A DNA stretch of 57,272 nucleotides. Origin: Candidatus Spechtbacterales bacterium. GTDB taxonomy: Bacteria > Patescibacteriota > Minisyncoccia > Spechtbacterales > 2-12-FULL-38-22. Positions 1,771 to 43,690 of this stretch are shown piece after piece (within the stretch, counting starts at the first letter, position 1; each line of letters opens with the position of its first letter). The stretch covers positions 4,128 to 61,399 of the forward strand of contig JBBDXP010000015.1 in NCBI GenBank assembly GCA_040902285.1, read 5' to 3'. The notes below the pieces were generated by a model. The model saw only the letters and a list, made by a program, of their open reading frames with translations. It was not told where the DNA came from and ran no database searches. A program made the position numbers and the translations under genes.

Positions 1771-1809
1771 AAAAAAGAGCCCCCTCACATACGCGCATGT
1801 AAGGGGCCC
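1771..1809 (-). terminator. Terminator downstream of the DGR-target-like gene
   Basis: Minus strand CCCCTTACAT-GCGCGT-ATGTGAGGGG then GCTCTTTTTT. Confidence 0.65.
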
Positions 1810-1827
1810 AAGTCCTCAGGGGACCGA

Positions 1828-1866
1828 GGTTCACCCCGTTAGAGGTAAACCTCTAACGGGGTTCAC
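1828..1866. repeat. Palindromic mini-element flanked by GGTTCAC direct repeats
   Basis: Perfect 13-bp stem ACCCCGTTAGAGG-TAAA-CCTCTAACGGGGT; GGTTCAC at 1828-1834 and 1860-1866. Confidence 0.8.
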
Positions 1867-2674
1867 TTCCGAGCGGACGCCACCCCGAGGCAGTCGTCGC
1901 GGTCGTCGACCCAGTAGCGGGCGACGCCGAGACCCTGCTCGTCGCTTATATAGAAATATTGCAATTTTCAGAGAAGTCACCGACGCTGACGTGGTAGCCG
2001 CCCGAGTCCACGGACGAGGTCCTCACGTAGACGTGGGGGACAAGGCGGATGCCTCGAACCTTGGCGTATGCGGTGAAGAACCACGTGGCCTCTGCGACGT
2101 TGGGAACGCGCTCGTTGTCGCTGAGCTGGTCCTGCTGCTCGCTCCACGTCTTGCGAGTGGAGTTGGGTACAGGGTCCTTGCGAATAACGAGCCACGTCGT
2201 GCCAACAGTGTCGGAGCGAGCGAACTTCTGACGTTTGTCCGCGAACCACGGGTCGTTCTTCTCGAAGAACAGATCCGTGTTGAGTTCGTGGATGTCCAGA
2301 AGGTTCATCTCGCTTGGCGGGCCTGCTACGACGGCGAAGCCGTTGTCGCGTGCCCACTGCAGGACTTCCTTTTCGGGAAGCGTTGAGGTCAAGCTCGCAA
2401 GCTGTGCCTCGGTGTAGCTGACGCCGATCGCCTCTGCGATTTCCTGTGGACTGATGAAGTCATCGCCCAGGATGTCGCGAGCCCGCTGGTAGCTCGACGT
2501 GGTGCCCGAACTGCCAGTGAGCGTGTTGGCGAACTGAACGAGCTGAGCTCGCGCAGATCGGTCGTTGACTAATGTTTTGAGCGCTTCGTCATTGAGACCC
2601 TCTTCCGCAAGCAAGCGAAAAAGTGTTGCCTCAAATTCAGATGCTCTGGCAAGACCTGCGATAGTGATAGCCAT
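1863..2674 (-). pseudogene. DGR target-like (CLec/FGE-type C-terminus) gene disrupted by a 29-bp insertion at 1944-1972
   Basis: AGGAGG SD before ATG 2674. Removing 1944-1972 leaves 783 bp in one frame ending ...VSVGDF-DEQGLGVARYWVDDRDDCLGVASARK-TGA. GC clearly higher than flanks; homologous to 43031-43690. Confidence 0.8.
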
Positions 2675-2840: not shown

Positions 2841-3298
2841 TTTACTTCCAGTATTTTGTATTTTCTTTTTCCAGAGGGGATTTCTATTTCTACTTCATCG
2901 TCTTTTTTACGGCTCATAAAAGCCCTGCCAAGCGGAGAATCGTAAGACAGCTTGCCTTCGGCGGGGTCTGCTTCCTCCCGTCCTGTTATTGTAAAGCTTT
3001 TTTCGGCGCCGTCGGGACTTTTTACTTTTATAGCCGAGCCGATCCTTACCGCGCTTCCTTTTTGCGCGCTTTCTTCTATTATTTCGGCGTCGTTTAAAAT
3101 TCTTTTTATTTCCGAAATCCTTCCTTCCATGCGGCTTTGCTGTTCTTTTGCTTCTTCGTACGCGGCATTTTCAGACAAGTCACCCTGGGCTATGGCCTCT
3201 TCAAGACGCTTGGCCACCTTGGGCCTTTCTTTTTGTTCAAGCTCTTCAAGTTCGGCGGTTAGCTTGTTGAATCCTTCTTTTGTTAGTTTTTCTGCCAT
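2837..3298 (-). CDS. greA: Transcription elongation factor GreA
   Basis: QGDLSENAAYEEAK and SYDSPLGRAF motifs. Confidence 0.96.
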   Translation of the reverse strand: MAEKLTKEGFNKLTAELEELEQKERPKVAKRLEEAIAQGDLSENAAYEEAKEQQSRMEGRISEIKRILNDAEIIEESAQKGSAVRIGSAIKVKSPDGAEKSFTITGREEADPAEGKLSYDSPLGRAFMSRKKDDEVEIEIPSGKRKYKILEVN

Positions 3299-3373: not shown

Positions 3374-3613
3374 ATGGAAAAACAAGTAACTATATATTCA
3401 ACACCCACATGTCACTATTGCCACATGGCGAAAGAATTTTTTAAAGAACATAATGTGGAATATGCCGATAAGGATGTAACGCAGGACATGAAAGTGCGTG
3501 AAGAAATGGTAGAAAAATCAGGACAACTGGGAGTACCCGTTATAGAGATAGGGGACCAAGTGCTTATCGGCTTTGATAAGGACGCTTTAATGGAACTGTT
3601 GGAAATAAAATAG
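3374..3613 (+). CDS. Glutaredoxin/NrdH-like redoxin
   Basis: IYSTPTCHYCHMAK and GVPVI. Confidence 0.92.
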   Translation: MEKQVTIYSTPTCHYCHMAKEFFKEHNVEYADKDVTQDMKVREEMVEKSGQLGVPVIEIGDQVLIGFDKDALMELLEIK

Positions 3614-3618
3614 TTCTT

Positions 3619-4071
3619 ATGAAGTTTAAGAGTATTATTTACAAAATTATAGATGCGGGAGATGTTTGGGCGCACTGCGATTTGTTTTGCGGAGTGTATG
3701 ACCCGGCACAGGCGCGGATAGAGGCTCAGTCGGTATACAATGCCATGAAAATATACCACATGGCCAAGGATGATGTTTCAAGACAGCGGGCCGTTTTAAT
3801 AAAAGAACAGCGGGCCGAGCTTGTTAAGCACCATTTGTGGGTTCTTTGGACGGATTATTTTAAACCCGAACACGCCGAAAAGCACAAAGACCTGCACGAT
3901 TTATTTTGGCAGGCAACAAAGGTGGCTGGGGACGCCAAAAAGACGGTTGAACCCGAAGTTGGACAAAAGTTGATAGATTTAATTGATAAGATAGGAAATA
4001 TATTTGCCGAAACAAAAGAAGGATATCAATACAAGCCCATAGCCGATAATATGTCCGCTCAGGCAAAATAA
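3619..4071 (+). CDS. sodN: Nickel superoxide dismutase precursor
   Basis: Leader followed by Ni-hook HCDLFCGVYDPAQA; VKHHLWVLWTDYFK. Confidence 0.93.
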   Translation: MKFKSIIYKIIDAGDVWAHCDLFCGVYDPAQARIEAQSVYNAMKIYHMAKDDVSRQRAVLIKEQRAELVKHHLWVLWTDYFKPEHAEKHKDLHDLFWQATKVAGDAKKTVEPEVGQKLIDLIDKIGNIFAETKEGYQYKPIADNMSAQAK

Positions 4072-9588: not shown

Positions 9589-10380
9589 ATGAACAACTAT
9601 TTTAAAAAAATATCACAACTCGCAAGTTCTTGGATAAAATCTATACACGGATTATTTGGCAATGAAGATTTTTCTGAAGAAAAGGACGAGTTCGTTGCCA
9701 TAGTGTCGCACCAGCTTCGCACTCCTGTCTCGGCTCTGTTGGGATATATGTCTTTGCTTAGAGACGGCAATTACGGAAAACTGACATCGGAGCAGTTGAA
9801 CGTGATAAACAAATCATTAAAAATAACTCTGGGCATGGAACGCATGATTGATAATTTTCTCAGTGTATCGCACGCCGAAAGGGGAGTTTTAAAATTCCAC
9901 TTTGAAAAAACCGATTTACGCGATATTATAGATGAGGTTGCAGAAAGACATGAAATGCAGGCCAAGCGCAAAGAACTGCAAATAAAATGGCTAAGACCGG
10001 ATAATCCCGTTTATATAGATGCTGATATTGGAAAGCTTTCCAATGTTTTTTCAAACATTTTAGACAACGCGCTTAAATACACCGAGAAGGGCGGAGTATC
10101 CATAAGAATTCTTGAGGATAAGCGCAAGGGAATTGTTGAAATATTTATAAAAGACACGGGAATGGGTATAACCTCGGAAGATGAAAAAAATATATTTAAG
10201 AGTTTTTACAGAGGAAAAAAAGTGCACAATATCGAACCTGCGGGTGCCGGACTCGGCTTGCATGTGGCAAGAATGGTAATTGAAGGCCACGGGGGAACAA
10301 TAAGAATAGAGGGAACAAAGGAGGGTGCCGGAACAACGTTCGCGGTAGAGCTTCCCGATATGCCGGAAAAAATAAAATGA
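9589..10380 (+). CDS. Histidine kinase (HisKA + HATPase), no obvious sensor or TM domain
   Basis: SHQLRTP H-box, NILDNALKYT, DTGMGI, GAGLGL. Confidence 0.93.
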   Translation: MNNYFKKISQLASSWIKSIHGLFGNEDFSEEKDEFVAIVSHQLRTPVSALLGYMSLLRDGNYGKLTSEQLNVINKSLKITLGMERMIDNFLSVSHAERGVLKFHFEKTDLRDIIDEVAERHEMQAKRKELQIKWLRPDNPVYIDADIGKLSNVFSNILDNALKYTEKGGVSIRILEDKRKGIVEIFIKDTGMGITSEDEKNIFKSFYRGKKVHNIEPAGAGLGLHVARMVIEGHGGTIRIEGTKEGAGTTFAVELPDMPEKIK

Positions 10381-11798
10381 AAAATAGAATATACACAAAC
10401 GAAATAATGACCCGGGAAGGCAAAGATGTGGCACTGGCCGGCTGGATAGAGGCCCGGCGCGACCACGGCAAATTGATATTTTTGGATTTGCGCGACAAAA
10501 AAGGCATAGTCCAAGTTGTTATAACTCCGAAACAAAAAGACGCATATGAGGCGGCCAAAGATGTGCGCGATGAATGGGTTTTACAAATAAACGGCACAGT
10601 ACAAAAAAGGCCTGACAACATGGTAAACCCGGATATAGAAACGGGAAGGCACGAGATTGGCGTTAAAGAAATTAAAATTTTAAGTAAAGCTGAAACCTTG
10701 CCTTTTCCGATTGATACGGCCGGATATGATATTTCGGAAGAACTGCGCCTTAAATACAGATATTTGGATTTGAGAAGAAAACGGCTTAACGAGAATATTT
10801 CGCTGCGCTCGGAACTTATTCGCCGTGTGCGAAATTTTTTATTTGAAGAAGATTTTACAGAGATAGAAACTCCGCTCCTAACTAAATCGACTCCGGAAGG
10901 AGCAAGGGATTTCTTGGTTCCTTCGCGTATATATCCGGGAAAATTCTTCGCATTGCCGCAATCTCCTCAGCAATACAAACAGCTGCTTATGGTAGCGGGG
11001 TTCGAGAAATATTTCCAAATTGCCCGCGCTGTGCGGGATGAAGATCTGCGCGCGGACAGGGGATTTGAACACACTCAAATAGATATGGAGATGAGCTTTG
11101 CCGACAGAGAAGAAGTAATGGAGCTTAACGAAAGAATGATAACCGCTGTTTTTGAAAACCTTGGAATGAAATTAAAAGAAAAACCGTTCCCAGTTTTAAC
11201 TTATCGGGAGGCAATGGACAAATTTAAAAGCGACAGGTTCGACATGCGATCCGAAAAAGACAAAAAAAATAATGTTCTGGCATTCGCGTGGGTCGTGGAT
11301 TTTCCGTTTTTTGAAAAGGATGACAGCGGGCGATGGACTTTTACTCACAATCCTTTTTCCCAGCCCAAAGAAGAATTTGTAGAAGATCTTATTGCCGGGA
11401 AAAATATTGAAAATATACTAACAACGCAGTATGACCTTGTGTGCAACGGGTATGAAGTTGGAGGAGGAAGCATAAGAGCGCATGATCCGCGTGTATTGCA
11501 AGCGGTTCTCAAAATAATGGGTTACAGCGAAAAAGAAACGGAGGAAGGATTCGGACATATGTTAGAGGCCTTTAAGTATGGCGCGCCTCCCCACGGCGGA
11601 ATTGCCTATGGTGTTGAGCGGTTACTTATGATATTAAAGAATGAAGAGTACCTGCGCGAAGTGCAGGCATTTCCGCAGACCGGTTCCGGAAGGACTTCTG
11701 TAATGGATGCTCCGTCCGAAGCGGGCGAACAATTACTTAAAGAGCTAAATATTAAAATAATAAAAAATGCTAAGCGGAAGAAAAATAAAAATAAGTGA
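10377..11798 (+). CDS. aspS: Aspartyl-tRNA synthetase, probably non-discriminating, short form
   Basis: RRDHGKLIFLDLRD, LKYRYLDLRR, ALPQSPQQYKQLLM, GAPPHGGIAYG. Confidence 0.96.
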   Translation: MKNRIYTNEIMTREGKDVALAGWIEARRDHGKLIFLDLRDKKGIVQVVITPKQKDAYEAAKDVRDEWVLQINGTVQKRPDNMVNPDIETGRHEIGVKEIKILSKAETLPFPIDTAGYDISEELRLKYRYLDLRRKRLNENISLRSELIRRVRNFLFEEDFTEIETPLLTKSTPEGARDFLVPSRIYPGKFFALPQSPQQYKQLLMVAGFEKYFQIARAVRDEDLRADRGFEHTQIDMEMSFADREEVMELNERMITAVFENLGMKLKEKPFPVLTYREAMDKFKSDRFDMRSEKDKKNNVLAFAWVVDFPFFEKDDSGRWTFTHNPFSQPKEEFVEDLIAGKNIENILTTQYDLVCNGYEVGGGSIRAHDPRVLQAVLKIMGYSEKETEEGFGHMLEAFKYGAPPHGGIAYGVERLLMILKNEEYLREVQAFPQTGSGRTSVMDAPSEAGEQLLKELNIKIIKNAKRKKNKNK

Positions 11799-12909: not shown

Positions 12910-13959
12910 TTGTTTATGGGGGGTGATACTTTTGAACTGGCGCGTATTTTAGGACTGGTGGCTATATCTTTTGTGATAACCATTCTTTGGACACCGGCAC
13001 TGACGCATTTTCTGTACAAATACAACTTGGGTAAAAGAATACGCATAGGGAAGAACGCGCCCATTTTTGCTAAACTGCACCGGCATAAAGAGGGCACGCC
13101 AACTATGGGGGGCGTACTTATTTGGGGTACGACTCTTTTTTTGGTGGTTATTTTCTGGATAATTTCCGAGTTGTTTCCTGATTCTCCTTTCTCTATTTTT
13201 AATTTTTTAAACAGAGGCCAAACATATCTTCCTTTGGCGGCTTTGGTCGCGGCAGCTATTATAGGATTAGCCGATGACCTTTTGGGCATATTTCCTAAGG
13301 GCTCATTTAGGGGGGGGTTGCGCATGAAACACAGAGCCATATTATATTTTTTGGTTGCCGCCGTGGGCGCGTTTTGGTTCTTTTTCCGCCTGGATTGGGA
13401 TGTTTTATACATACCTTTTCTTGGCGAATACAATATAGGATTTTGGTACATCCCTTATTTTATACTTGTTATATTCGCGACTTCGTTTTCGGTAAATGAA
13501 ACCGACGGCTTAGACGGTCTTGCCGGCGGAGTACTGATGATGGCTTTTGCAAGCTATGGAGTATTGGCGTTTATTCAGGGAAGATTCGATCTTGCGGCTT
13601 TGATAGGGGTAATTGTGGGCGCTCTTTTGGCGTTTCTCTGGTTTAATGTTCCACCCGCCAGATTTTTTATGGGGGATACGGGAGCCATGTCGTTAGGCGT
13701 GGCACTGGGAATAATAGCGATGTTAACGAACATGTCTTTGCTTTTGCCCGTGATAGGATTGGTACTCGTGATAGAGTCCGCATCCGTAATACTGCAGGTT
13801 TTTTCTAAAAAAATATTCAAAAAGAAAATTTTTATATCCACGCCCATCCATCACCACCTTCAGGCCTCCGGATGGCCAGAATCCAAAATAGTAATGCGGT
13901 TATGGATAGTTTCGGCTGTTTCGGCGGGAGCAGGAGTGATAATAGGCCTGGTAGGATAA
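12910..13959 (+). CDS. mraY: Phospho-N-acetylmuramoyl-pentapeptide transferase
   Basis: KEGTPTMGG, NETDGLDGL, FFMGDTG, PIHHH. Confidence 0.96.
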   Translation: MFMGGDTFELARILGLVAISFVITILWTPALTHFLYKYNLGKRIRIGKNAPIFAKLHRHKEGTPTMGGVLIWGTTLFLVVIFWIISELFPDSPFSIFNFLNRGQTYLPLAALVAAAIIGLADDLLGIFPKGSFRGGLRMKHRAILYFLVAAVGAFWFFFRLDWDVLYIPFLGEYNIGFWYIPYFILVIFATSFSVNETDGLDGLAGGVLMMAFASYGVLAFIQGRFDLAALIGVIVGALLAFLWFNVPPARFFMGDTGAMSLGVALGIIAMLTNMSLLLPVIGLVLVIESASVILQVFSKKIFKKKIFISTPIHHHLQASGWPESKIVMRLWIVSAVSAGAGVIIGLVG

Positions 13960-13968
13960 ATACCACAA

Positions 13969-14787
13969 ATGTCAACCAAAGCTTTGCGTAAAAAGGTTTC
14001 CCGTCCCATAGGGATATTTGATTCGGGCATGGGGGGCATATCTATATATAAAGTGATTAAAAATCTTTTACCCGGAGAGGATTATATTTATCTCGCCGAC
14101 AAAAAATTCTTTCCCTACGGCACCAAAAGCTCAAAAACCATTTTAAAAAGAACGGATAAGGCGGTAAAATGGCTAAAGGAACAAGATGCGAAATTAATTG
14201 TTATTGCCTGCAATACCGCGACGGTTGAAGTTCTGGAGAGTATGCGCGAAAAATACCCCGATATTTTATTTGTGGGCACGGTGCCGGTTATAAAAACTTG
14301 TGCTGAAAAAACAAAAACGGGCAGTATAGGAATATTATGCACAGAAAAAACCGCCAACAGCGAATATCAGCTCCGGCTTATAAAAAAATTCGCGCAGGAT
14401 AAGAATGTGCACATAGAGGTATGCGGTCAGCTTGTTGATATAATAGAAAGAGGCGACATAGAAAACATTAAAACCTCGCCGTTCGTTTTACGCCCGATTG
14501 AAAAATTAAAAAATAAAAATGTGGATGTAATAGCCCTGGGTTGTTCGCATTTCCCGTTAATAGGATATGAAATACAAAAAATAGCCGGGAAAAAGGTACA
14601 TGTTATTGATTCGGGCAAAGCCATTGCCCGCAGGGTTAAAACTCTTCTTAAGAAAAGCTCTCAGTTGATTCAGGGAAAAATTCCGGGCCGAACCATCTTT
14701 TACACAACCGCACGTAAGGAAAAATTTGATAAAATAATAAGTATGTACACAAACGAACGGATAAAATCCCGTTTGGTTAAATTATAG
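13969..14787 (+). CDS. murI: Glutamate racemase
   Basis: FDSGMGG, PYG, ACNTAT, LGCSHFP. Confidence 0.95.
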   Translation: MSTKALRKKVSRPIGIFDSGMGGISIYKVIKNLLPGEDYIYLADKKFFPYGTKSSKTILKRTDKAVKWLKEQDAKLIVIACNTATVEVLESMREKYPDILFVGTVPVIKTCAEKTKTGSIGILCTEKTANSEYQLRLIKKFAQDKNVHIEVCGQLVDIIERGDIENIKTSPFVLRPIEKLKNKNVDVIALGCSHFPLIGYEIQKIAGKKVHVIDSGKAIARRVKTLLKKSSQLIQGKIPGRTIFYTTARKEKFDKIISMYTNERIKSRLVKL

Positions 14788-27538: not shown

Positions 27539-28738
27539 TTATCGCATAGAGCGTATCACTTCAATCGCTTTTTGTTTTTGAGTGTCATTACCGCTTTGAA
27601 AATCTTCTTCGGATAATTCTATACTGATCGTGGGTTCTATTCCTTCGTCGTTTATATACTGCCCCGATGGTGTTATCCATTTAGCTATAGTAAGTTTTAT
27701 ACTGCTCCCTCCCGGCAAGTCCTTAAATTCCTGCACCAGGCCCTTACCAAAAGTTTTTTCTCCCACAAGAGGGGTGTTTTTATGGTCACGTAGTGCGCCT
27801 GCAAGGATTTCAGAAGCGGAAGCCGAACCGCCATTCTGCAATATTACTATCGGAAAATCGCCTAATAATCCCGGCCCCTGACTTCTGTGTATGCGCTTGA
27901 TATCTCTTTGTCTCTCCTCTATTACTATTATTTCATCCTTTTGTAAAAACCATCCGGCTATGCTGGTTGCTGTTTCCAAAAACCCTCCAGGATTATTTCT
28001 TAGATCAACGATTATTCTGTCGGCGGGCGTTGTTAAAATTTCTTGAACGGCTTTTTTAAAATCCTCATCTGTATTATCCGAAAATTGCAATATTTCTATA
28101 TAAGCTATGTTGTCTTCTATAATTTCCCACTTTATAGAAGGCGCCTCTATTGTGTCGCGAATTACGGTTATACCGATTTCTTTGCCGCCTTCTTCCCGAA
28201 TGACGGTTAATTCAACCGAGGTGCCTTTGGGGCCTCGTATCTGCGTTATCGCTTCTTCTAAAGTAATGTCCTTTGTTGTCTCTCCGTTAATTGCGACTAT
28301 AGTGTCTCCGGCTCTGAGACCCGCTCGCAAAGCGGGCGATTCTTTAAGGGGAGACACAATCGTTAACTTATCGTCTTTTAGCGTAATTTCAATTCCCACA
28401 CCTTCATATTTTCCCGTGACACTATCCACAAACTCCGATGTTTCTTCTTTGTCAAAAAATGTGGAATACGGATCTCCAAGTTCTCTTAGCATTCCCCTTA
28501 TTGCCGCGTATATCAGCGCCTCGTCATTTATTTCATCCGCGTTTACATAATCTCTGTGTATAATATCCCAAACGTCCTTTATCAGTGAAAAATCAACCTT
28601 TTCACTTTTAAATATGGAGGGTATGGCAAAATCATAAATATCCGAAGATTTTTTATGTGAAGAACCGGCAAAAAACCCCGCGCCAAAGACGAAAGTTGCC
28701 AGTATAATAAAGGTCAGTATTTTTTTAAATATATTCAT
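27539..28738 (-). CDS. ctpA: C-terminal processing protease CtpA (S41) with PDZ domain
   Basis: DPYS, GVGI, DLRNNPGG, SASASEILAGALRD, GEKTFGKG. Confidence 0.95.
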   Translation of the reverse strand: MNIFKKILTFIILATFVFGAGFFAGSSHKKSSDIYDFAIPSIFKSEKVDFSLIKDVWDIIHRDYVNADEINDEALIYAAIRGMLRELGDPYSTFFDKEETSEFVDSVTGKYEGVGIEITLKDDKLTIVSPLKESPALRAGLRAGDTIVAINGETTKDITLEEAITQIRGPKGTSVELTVIREEGGKEIGITVIRDTIEAPSIKWEIIEDNIAYIEILQFSDNTDEDFKKAVQEILTTPADRIIVDLRNNPGGFLETATSIAGWFLQKDEIIVIEERQRDIKRIHRSQGPGLLGDFPIVILQNGGSASASEILAGALRDHKNTPLVGEKTFGKGLVQEFKDLPGGSSIKLTIAKWITPSGQYINDEGIEPTISIELSEEDFQSGNDTQKQKAIEVIRSMR

Positions 28739-43030: not shown

Positions 43031-43690
43031 CTAAAAAATTCTGCACGAAGCAAGGCCTATAAAGGCACGGGCCGTATCATCACTATCCCCTATCACGACA
43101 AGATTGGCTTCGTCCCAGAAGTATCCCACATACACATGACCTCCGCCCGAATACACGGAGGAGGTTCGAACATAAGCAATGTCGGTAAACGGGTTTTCTC
43201 CTGCAACCTTGGTATAAGTATTGAACGCCCAGGCGGCCTGAGCTGCATTCGGGACACGCTCGTCAATGCCCAGCATAGCTATTTGATTAAGCCAATTCTT
43301 GCCTGTTGAGTCCGGAATCCACCCCTTGCGGACGACAAGCCATTCTGTGTCAACCGTATCGTTGAGGCTAAACTCTTCTTTTTGCTCCTCATACCAAGCG
43401 GTAGGTCCCCGGAACGACCGTGAATCGAGTTTTCTTATATCCAAAAGGTTCATCTTACGAGGCGGACCTGGGATAACAATACAATTATTATCGCGGGCCC
43501 AAAGAAGAATCTCCCGAGGCGGAACCAGAGTTGCAAGACAGGCAAGCTGTACAAATAAATACTTTAAACCCCAGGCGTTAGCCGCCTGAACCGGGGCTAT
43601 AAAATCATGTCCCAAAATCTCCAGCGCTTCCGTATAGTTGCGAACCGCTATTTCCTCAAAAAAGCCTGATCTTTGAGTGTCATGTGGCAT
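43031..43690 (-). CDS. DGR target-like (CLec-type C-terminus) protein, paralog of 1863-2674
   Basis: Shared blocks WARDN, GPP..MNLLDI, DTV.T.WLV.RK, ERVPN.A.A.W, YVRTSSV.SGG.HV.VG.F; own promoter (TTGACA-17-TATAAA), AAGGAG SD and terminator. Confidence 0.8.
   Translation of the reverse strand: MPHDTQRSGFFEEIAVRNYTEALEILGHDFIAPVQAANAWGLKYLFVQLACLATLVPPREILLWARDNNCIVIPGPPRKMNLLDIRKLDSRSFRGPTAWYEEQKEEFSLNDTVDTEWLVVRKGWIPDSTGKNWLNQIAMLGIDERVPNAAQAAWAFNTYTKVAGENPFTDIAYVRTSSVYSGGGHVYVGYFWDEANLVVIGDSDDTARAFIGLASCRIF

Follow-up and report, generated by a model that had tools for sequence, protein, structure and literature searches.

A solo, disrupted member of a CPR family of DGR targets, with a two-donor mosaic insertion in its VR

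Introduction

A gene that ends like the target of a DGR but stands apart from any reverse transcriptase (RT) or template repeat (TR) raises the question of whether it is still served from elsewhere in the genome or is what a former cassette has left behind. Such a gene is found on the minus strand of a stretch of 57,272 nt from a Candidatus Spechtbacterales bacterium (GenBank assembly GCA_040902285.1, contig JBBDXP010000015.1, positions 4,128 to 61,399), which is called here the window. In a DGR, RT and Avd copy the TR RNA with misincorporation at adenines, and the cDNA then replaces the VR of the target gene. A previous sequence-only reading of the window had described positions 1863-2674 as a GC-rich orphan ORF with the hallmarks of such a target, and had proposed that it was either a remote target or one acquired without its cassette. 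DGRs of CPR bacteria and their uncharacterised targets have already been published (PMC5758913, PMC8144416).

Results

The gene is interrupted within its VR

The gene starts at the ATG at 2674, with an RBS (GGAAGGAGG) upstream, and the stop codon of the family is the TGA at 1863-1865. With its 812 nt, the span 1863-2674 is not divisible by 3 and so cannot be the single ORF that had been supposed. The frame opened by the ATG stops at a TAA at 1946-1948, giving a product of 242 aa that ends in ...VGDFSENCNISI, whereas the codons for DEQGLGVARYWVDDRDDCLGVASARK, which precede the family stop, and with them the C-terminus recorded in the sequence-only reading (...GLGVARYWVDDRDDCLGVASARK, closed by the TGA at 1863-1865), sit in a different frame. 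The family HMM likewise matched the gene in two pieces, with HMM positions 8-238 in one frame (E = 1e-100 for the window ORF) and 236-261 in another (E = 4e-6 for the out-of-frame C-terminus), and it was from the frames, this HMM and the homologues described below that 1863-2674 (minus strand) was classed as a disrupted gene of a CPR DGR-target family. No continuous ORF runs through the VR because of the TAA and of a +2 frameshift, both brought in by an insertion at 1944-1972. Taking out this AT-rich block of 29 nt, which the earlier reading had passed over and written as an ellipsis in its predicted TR, restores an ORF of 260 codons.

The gene occupies a GC island (1790-2690) with 59% GC, compared to 41% in the remaining window, so that its GC-richness was confirmed. 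With the insertion removed, 27 of the last 40 codons (67.5%) were of the NNC type compared to 43.6% of its other codons (Fisher p = 0.006), which bears out the claimed dominance of these codons at the C-terminal end, and adenines accounted for 12.5% of the last 40 codons against 23%. No Pfam match was obtained with either the truncated or the repaired protein, and a profile search of PDB sequences gave nothing meaningful and no detectable sequence similarity.

Homologues form a family of DGR targets in CPR bacteria

A database search retrieved at least 139 homologues, all of them from CPR/Patescibacteria, of about 260 aa, devoid of Pfam domains and covering 100% of the repaired query, the closest of which (P0002) is 72% identical to the window protein. 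The gene is thus no orphan, all the more as the window also holds a paralogue. The family shares the C-terminus YVRTSSxxSxGxxVxVGxF-xxx-GLxVxxxxxxxRxxxxGVASARK, in which hypervariable positions are set in a fixed scaffold, and the residues that had been singled out as invariant in the window copy (VG, F, GL, V, W, R and LGVASARK) turned out to be this conserved scaffold.

The paralogue (43031-43690, minus strand, 219 aa, E = 5e-66) is diverged, with 49% GC, a degraded C-terminal scaffold (…YVGYFWDEANLVVIGDSDDTARAFIGLASCRIF) and no cassette, and looks like an older relic. Family members have a GC content of 56-64% in hosts of 31-60% GC, with a median excess of 14.6 points over 36 loci plus the window gene. 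Therefore, GC-richness is a trait of the family and not a mark of recent transfer into the window genome alone. A scan of IMG/VR viral contigs for the family gave 0 matches; the family is cellular, not viral, and fits the cellular DGR clade restricted to Patescibacteria (PMC8144416).

Homologous loci were collected by scanning one genome per species, which gave 61 loci. In a first pass, 16 of them had an ORF with the DGR RT hallmark IGNLTSQ...YxRYTDD lying 1-2 kb away from the family gene; once the criteria were relaxed and TRs were also detected, 23 homologous loci were found to hold target, TR, bAvd and RT. Pfam recognised RVT_1 in the RT ORFs and bAvd in the small opposite-strand gene between TR and RT. 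The order in intact relatives is target gene, a spacer of 350-450 nt, a TR of about 120 nt, bAvd on the opposite strand and RT; an avd ORF was sought in the spacer between VR and TR and was absent from it, as Avd sits after the TR on the opposite strand. The contig of P0002 (L068) carries a TR (2327-2445), bAvd and the start of the RT. Two cassettes had a different layout: L013 (9800-13507) has three tandem family genes ahead of its TR, and L014 has a second, fragmentary TR-like piece (3377-3739) and an Avd remnant upstream of an intact cassette.

The TRs differ from the last 40 codons of their targets almost only at TR adenines, where 17/17 mismatches were located in L016, 17/18 in L012, 18/19 in L028, 15/17 in L004 and 15/17 in L068, and about half of the TR adenines are changed in each VR. 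The real TRs (e.g. GTCGGCAACTTCGAC..AAGGGTCTCAACGTCAACAACTGGAACGAC..CGCAAC..AAC) are close to the one that had been predicted from the window gene alone. When the restored VR of the window was compared with the TR of L068, which is not its cognate, 18 of 29 adenines differed, compared to 10 of the 90 other positions (Fisher p = 1.6e-7). From its profile match and this comparison, the window gene is a member of the DGR-target family and, given the adenine-specific signature, its VR was diversified in the past or descends from a diversified copy. Thus, the proposal of a target domain derived from the AAC codons of a TR holds for the family, at 23 loci and by its adenine mismatches, and is only partly right for the window copy.

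An AF2/AlphaFold model of an intact homologue (P0003) reached a pLDDT of 90.4, and the Foldseek list of PDB entries obtained with it was dominated by FGE, EgtB, SenA, C-type lectins, TvpA and TaqVP, with weak individual scores: the best E-value was 0.03, all being above 0.01, and the C-terminal domain of Bd2740 gave a probability of 0.96 and a TM of 0.60. The model is consistent with a CLec/FGE fold for the family and does not prove it. In intact relatives, the replaced VR would be the last 40 codons or so, at the tip of this CLec/FGE-like domain.

The 29-nt insertion was copied from two donors

Alignment with the TR/VR pairs of homologues defines a VR 5' part of 14 codons (1973-2014, minus strand; TCC GTG GAC ... 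GGT GAC TTC), followed by the insertion (TCTGAAAATTGCAATATTTCTATATAAGC, 1944-1972, minus strand) and by a 3' part of 26 codons (1866-1943, minus strand), whose frame differs from that of the remaining gene. The length of the insertion is set at 29 nt by the family, in which exactly 3 residues separate VGxF and GL. On the sense strand, its context reads ...GTC GGT GAC TTC / TCT GAAAAT TGCAATATTTCTATATAAGC / GAC GAG CAG GGT..., and its effect is to deprive the protein of the conserved GL.V..W..R..LGVASARK end.

The insertion is a mosaic. The junction between VR and insertion (GGTGACTTcTCTGAAAAT) matches greA (GGTGACTTgTCTGAAAAT, 3167-3184) at 17 of 18 bases, with 0 such matches expected by chance; this first donor (GGTGACTTGTCTGAAAAT, minus strand) encodes the GreA residues GDLSEN. 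The second piece, of 26 nt (GAAAATTGCAATATTTCTATATAAGC), is an exact copy of 28080-28105 (plus strand), antisense to the codons for AYIEILQF in an intact S41/Ctp peptidase gene (ctp; 27539-28738, minus strand). The greA donor lies 1.2 kb from the VR in sense orientation, and the peptidase donor 26 kb away in antisense. Microhomology measures 8 nt (GGTGACTT) from VR to greA, 6 nt (GAAAAT) from greA to ctp and 1 nt from ctp back to the VR. None of the 11 adenines and 11 thymines of the insertion departs from the donors, and one base at the greA junction is mismatched. In the related genome L001, which shares about 78% nucleotide identity with the window in common genes, greA has other synonymous codons at the donor site; hence, the donor is the greA allele of the window's own lineage, and the event took place in situ. 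We infer that the insertion arose by serial microhomology-mediated template switching of a DNA polymerase during replication or repair.

The cumulative GC skew of the window peaks near 27 kb, about 1 kb from the ctp donor site, and gene orientation flips there from mostly plus to mostly minus, a switch that may correspond to a replication terminus or to a simple change in operon orientation.

Several other readings were considered and rejected. Spacer capture of the CRISPR type was discarded as flanking repeats are absent, and so was a 26-kb inversion between inverted copies, as ctp is continuous and so are the flanks of the VR. That ribosomes bypass the insertion was also dismissed, as neither matching take-off and landing codons that would restore the conserved F nor support from homologues were found.

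Two further explanations touch on the reality of the insertion and on the enzyme involved. VRs are variable in populations and often mis-assembled, and the assembly graph is fragmented around 1820-1940, so that the interruption could be false and the real gene intact. However, among the Logan contigs of the three sequencing runs that hold the locus (X1 = SRR27977660, X2 and X3), which drop rare variants, independent k=31 contigs of two samples, of 163 nt (depth 13.4) and 582 nt (depth 9.1), cross both junctions with 0 differences, and no insertion-free contig was found among the assembler contigs of the samples holding the locus. A chimera of the de Bruijn graph was rejected as well, the shared 26-mer being shorter than the overlap of k-1 = 30 nt needed for a false path. 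An assembly or sequencing artefact is therefore highly improbable. Reverse transcriptases readily switch templates at short microhomologies and extend mismatched ends, and the insertion could also be the footprint of aberrant retrohoming, in which the RT switched template to greA mRNA and to an antisense RNA of ctp and the chimeric cDNA was integrated. The insertion lies exactly inside the VR, to which integration of DGR cDNA is confined, the greA piece has the mRNA sense relative to the sense strand of the target, and extension of a mismatched end would explain the single mismatch at the greA junction. Against this, the 22 unmutated adenines and thymines argue against passage through an adenine-mutagenic RT, the norm in the family being that about half of the adenines are changed, the ctp piece would require an antisense transcript, and the window holds no RT. 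Such a footprint is thus very unlikely, if somewhat less so than an artefact, and template switching by a DNA polymerase is the preferred mechanism.

The 3' flank carries an eroded repeat array

The two hairpins that had been noted right after the stop codon were found, with a fold z-score of -6.2: the first, with a 13-bp stem and a 4-nt loop, at 1834-1862, and the second, a terminator with a T-run, at 1780-1808. Comparison with the post-stop regions of L001, L068, L069 and others revealed a copy-specific insertion of 32 nt (1828-1859, minus strand), 3 nt after the stop, made of a 25-nt perfect hairpin and a 7-nt duplication (GTGAACC). No other copy of the post-stop hairpin was detected in the window or in 70 loci. 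Thus, this hairpin, which had been taken for a DGR hallmark, is peculiar to the window copy and not a family feature. The intrinsic terminator, comprising hairpin and T-run (1771-1808, minus strand), has the same form as in L001.

What the family does have behind the stop is an array of about 5 CTTGA/CTTG repeats with a spacing of 8-9 nt, which opens at the stop codon and runs into the terminator stem. CTTG density averages 3.5 per 70 nt after the stop compared to 0.05 inside the gene. The array adjoins VRs and not TRs, and was found in 44 loci (e.g. L008 4829-4898, L010 10697-10766 and L068 1941-2010), some solo copies having lost it (0-1 repeats). In the window, the 3' end of the VR (CTCGGGGTGGCGTCCGCTCGGAAG) and the 3' scaffold are intact, whereas the array has been reduced from 5 repeats, the number in close relatives, to a single CTTG in an eroded remnant (TGAACCTCGGTCCCCTGAGGACTTG, 1809-1833, minus strand) that is broken by the hairpin insertion. 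The array is a candidate target-site element, and to our knowledge it has not been described before.

The window copy stands without a cassette, as do many relatives

The absence of RT, TR and avd, which the sequence-only reading had noted for the vicinity of the gene, was confirmed across the 57 kb of the window. An HMM built from 13 family-linked RTs gave no match at E-values up to 10 in any frame, and iterated jackhmmer gave none for Avd. No near-copy of either VR half was found in the 57 kb by blastn with a word size of 7. A maximum-sensitivity scan of all window ORFs of at least 15 aa with the family HMM, which in other loci picks up TRs as fragments of HMM positions 223-261, returned nothing beyond the two family genes. 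When JGI metagenome contigs were scanned for a cognate TR or VR with the exact 21-mer of the VR scaffold, there were 0 matches.

The window and L001 share the gene order SpoU, acylphosphatase, 101-aa ORF, GreA, glutaredoxin, SodN, S26 peptidase, hydrolase and Mur ligase. As the 101-aa ORF and greA of L001 are only 25 nt apart, the window gene is, relative to that genome, a GC-rich insertion of about 0.9 kb at that site. Of the two origins proposed beforehand, acquisition without the cassette fits this synteny, whereas a working remote target is unlikely, the VR being split and the 3' element eroded.

L001 has a family member of its own 5 kb away, likewise without RT, and a second family copy at 13522-14184 (minus strand). 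The solo gene of L001 is flanked by a direct repeat of 50 nt (9881-9930 and 10863-10912, 92% identical) that holds a sigma70-like promoter (TTGTAA-17-TATAAT). With promoter-bearing repeats around it, the inserted unit would run approximately from the transcription start to the terminator, which hints at how family units of about 1 kb move.

Solo copies are common. About 20 loci whose flanks extend for 5 kb or more on either side show no RT. Of the family copies with enough flank, about half are solo, most of them intact; L043 and L054 are solo loci broken by a stop or a frameshift. The solo copy of L065 keeps a 44-aa remnant of an RT (10957-11088; E = 2e-4 with the family RT HMM), which is direct evidence of cassette decay. 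L065 comes from a Spechtbacteria genome, in which the copy is flanked by the TIM and PGK genes; an unrelated hairpin (15-bp stem, 4-nt loop) follows its stop, and a PF05635 gene lies 1.7 kb downstream.

Heterogeneity in the samples

In both samples, the contig over the 3' half of the VR reaches a depth of only about 60% of that of its neighbours, and it also connects to a second downstream context, which could reflect heterogeneity or a second copy. Contigs of X1 and X2 join a different GC-rich sequence (...GCTTCTGCGGGCAGGTCGGCGGACAAGCAA) to window position 1820; the X2 contig, of 612 nt, which joins ...GGCGGACAAGCAA to that position, goes on across the hairpin and the 3' half of the VR as far as 1939. 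In X1 there is, besides, a second allele that diverges by about 10% over 2056-2554 and resembles P0004 at its N-terminus. A second copy or strain is present in the samples.

Discussion

The window copy is, with a probability that we put at about 0.75, a non-functional relic, i.e. a solo and disrupted DGR target into which homing no longer takes place. A once-diversified target gene would have come to stand alone without RT, Avd and TR; later, the 29-nt insertion from the cell's own greA and S41 peptidase gene would have split its VR by a stop and a frameshift, and the 32-nt hairpin insertion and the loss of most CTTGA repeats would have added to the decay. An appropriate annotation is that of a disrupted DGR variable-protein pseudogene of a CPR family, neither an orphan nor an intact ORF of 270 codons.

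The main alternative is that a DGR located elsewhere in the genome still homes into this VR, in which case the insertion would have struck the dominant strain by accident, very recently, and would be erased at the next homing. Targets not adjacent to their cassette are documented for other DGRs (PMC5758913), and service in trans would account for the many intact solo copies of the family. The 3' scaffold of the VR is preserved, in two samples a drop in depth over the 3' half of the VR coincides with a break in the assembly graph, and our view covers 57 kb of the genome plus assembler contigs, from which rare insertion-free or diversified alleles could escape. However, those 57 kb hold no TR, RT or Avd, and among the contigs of these samples none resembling a TR could be aligned to the VR with at least 80% identity, a threshold of borderline sensitivity. 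The insertion is the sole allele seen in two samples, and the post-stop array is eroded and interrupted. In the survey of Wu et al., remote targets at distances above 100 kb turned up only outside the CPR set, and CPR DGRs are reported to tend towards a single target (PMC5758913). Cassette decay is, as seen in L065, a source of solo copies. A working remote target is unlikely, since one round of homing would overwrite the frame-breaking insertion that splits the VR, and since the conserved 3' element has been eroded.

An extension of this alternative is slightly less likely still, namely that the dispersed solo copies are working remote targets of a single cassette acting in trans, with the array of five CTTGA repeats as the recognition element of the target site, and that the window copy lost the array and was scarred at its homing site by repair or by a failed integration of cDNA. 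The DGR of the Bordetella phage has a hairpin/cruciform at its target site, for which the CTTGA array would stand in. The window copy thereby draws attention to the conserved array that follows the VR in the family as a candidate target-site signal.

With the window copy read as a relic, its relation to known systems can be stated. By sequence, it belongs to the same family as the cassette-adjacent targets of 23 CPR loci, i.e. to the DGR variable proteins of CPR/Patescibacteria (the CPR set of Wu et al. 2018, PMC5758913; DGR clade 2 of Roux et al. 2021, PMC8144416), with which it shares a VR formed by the last 40 codons or so, adenine-specific differences between TR and VR and a cellular host. 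In contrast to them, it lacks a cassette in 57 kb and has a VR split by a frame-breaking insertion and an eroded 3' flanking element. As in the CLec/FGE variable proteins of solved structure TvpA of Treponema (2y3c), TaqVP of Thermus (5vf4) and Mtd of the Bordetella phage, the VR lies at the C-terminal end of a domain, the AlphaFold model of which retrieves such folds, but the family lacks sequence-profile similarity to PDB entries, Foldseek E-values below 0.01 and any Pfam domain. Like the remote DGR targets of Treponema denticola and Legionella (PMC5758913), the window gene is a family member away from any RT or TR; what defines those targets, however, is a TR elsewhere in their genome that matches them, and the broken VR of the window copy speaks against current use.

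As for the insertion, it combines short segments from two ectopic donors through microhomologies of 8, 6 and 1 nt, without target-site duplication or features of mobile elements. Insertions by microhomology-mediated template switching are known from MMBIR/FoSTeS-type events and from template-switch mutagenesis in E. coli. The present case resembles those events in the traits just given, and differs from them in that one donor is 26 kb off in the opposite orientation and that the event took place inside the target site of a retroelement; it is known here from its junction sequence.

The window gene is, then, a degenerate member of a published kind, and only the mosaic insertion and the CTTGA array are unusual; it changes nothing in our knowledge of how DGRs work. 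The two-donor insertion would offer a clear natural case, from an uncultivated lineage, of microhomology-mediated template switching. For the family, this case indicates that DGR targets outlive their cassettes and then decay, and the target genes appear to move among CPR genomes as GC-rich units of about 1 kb.
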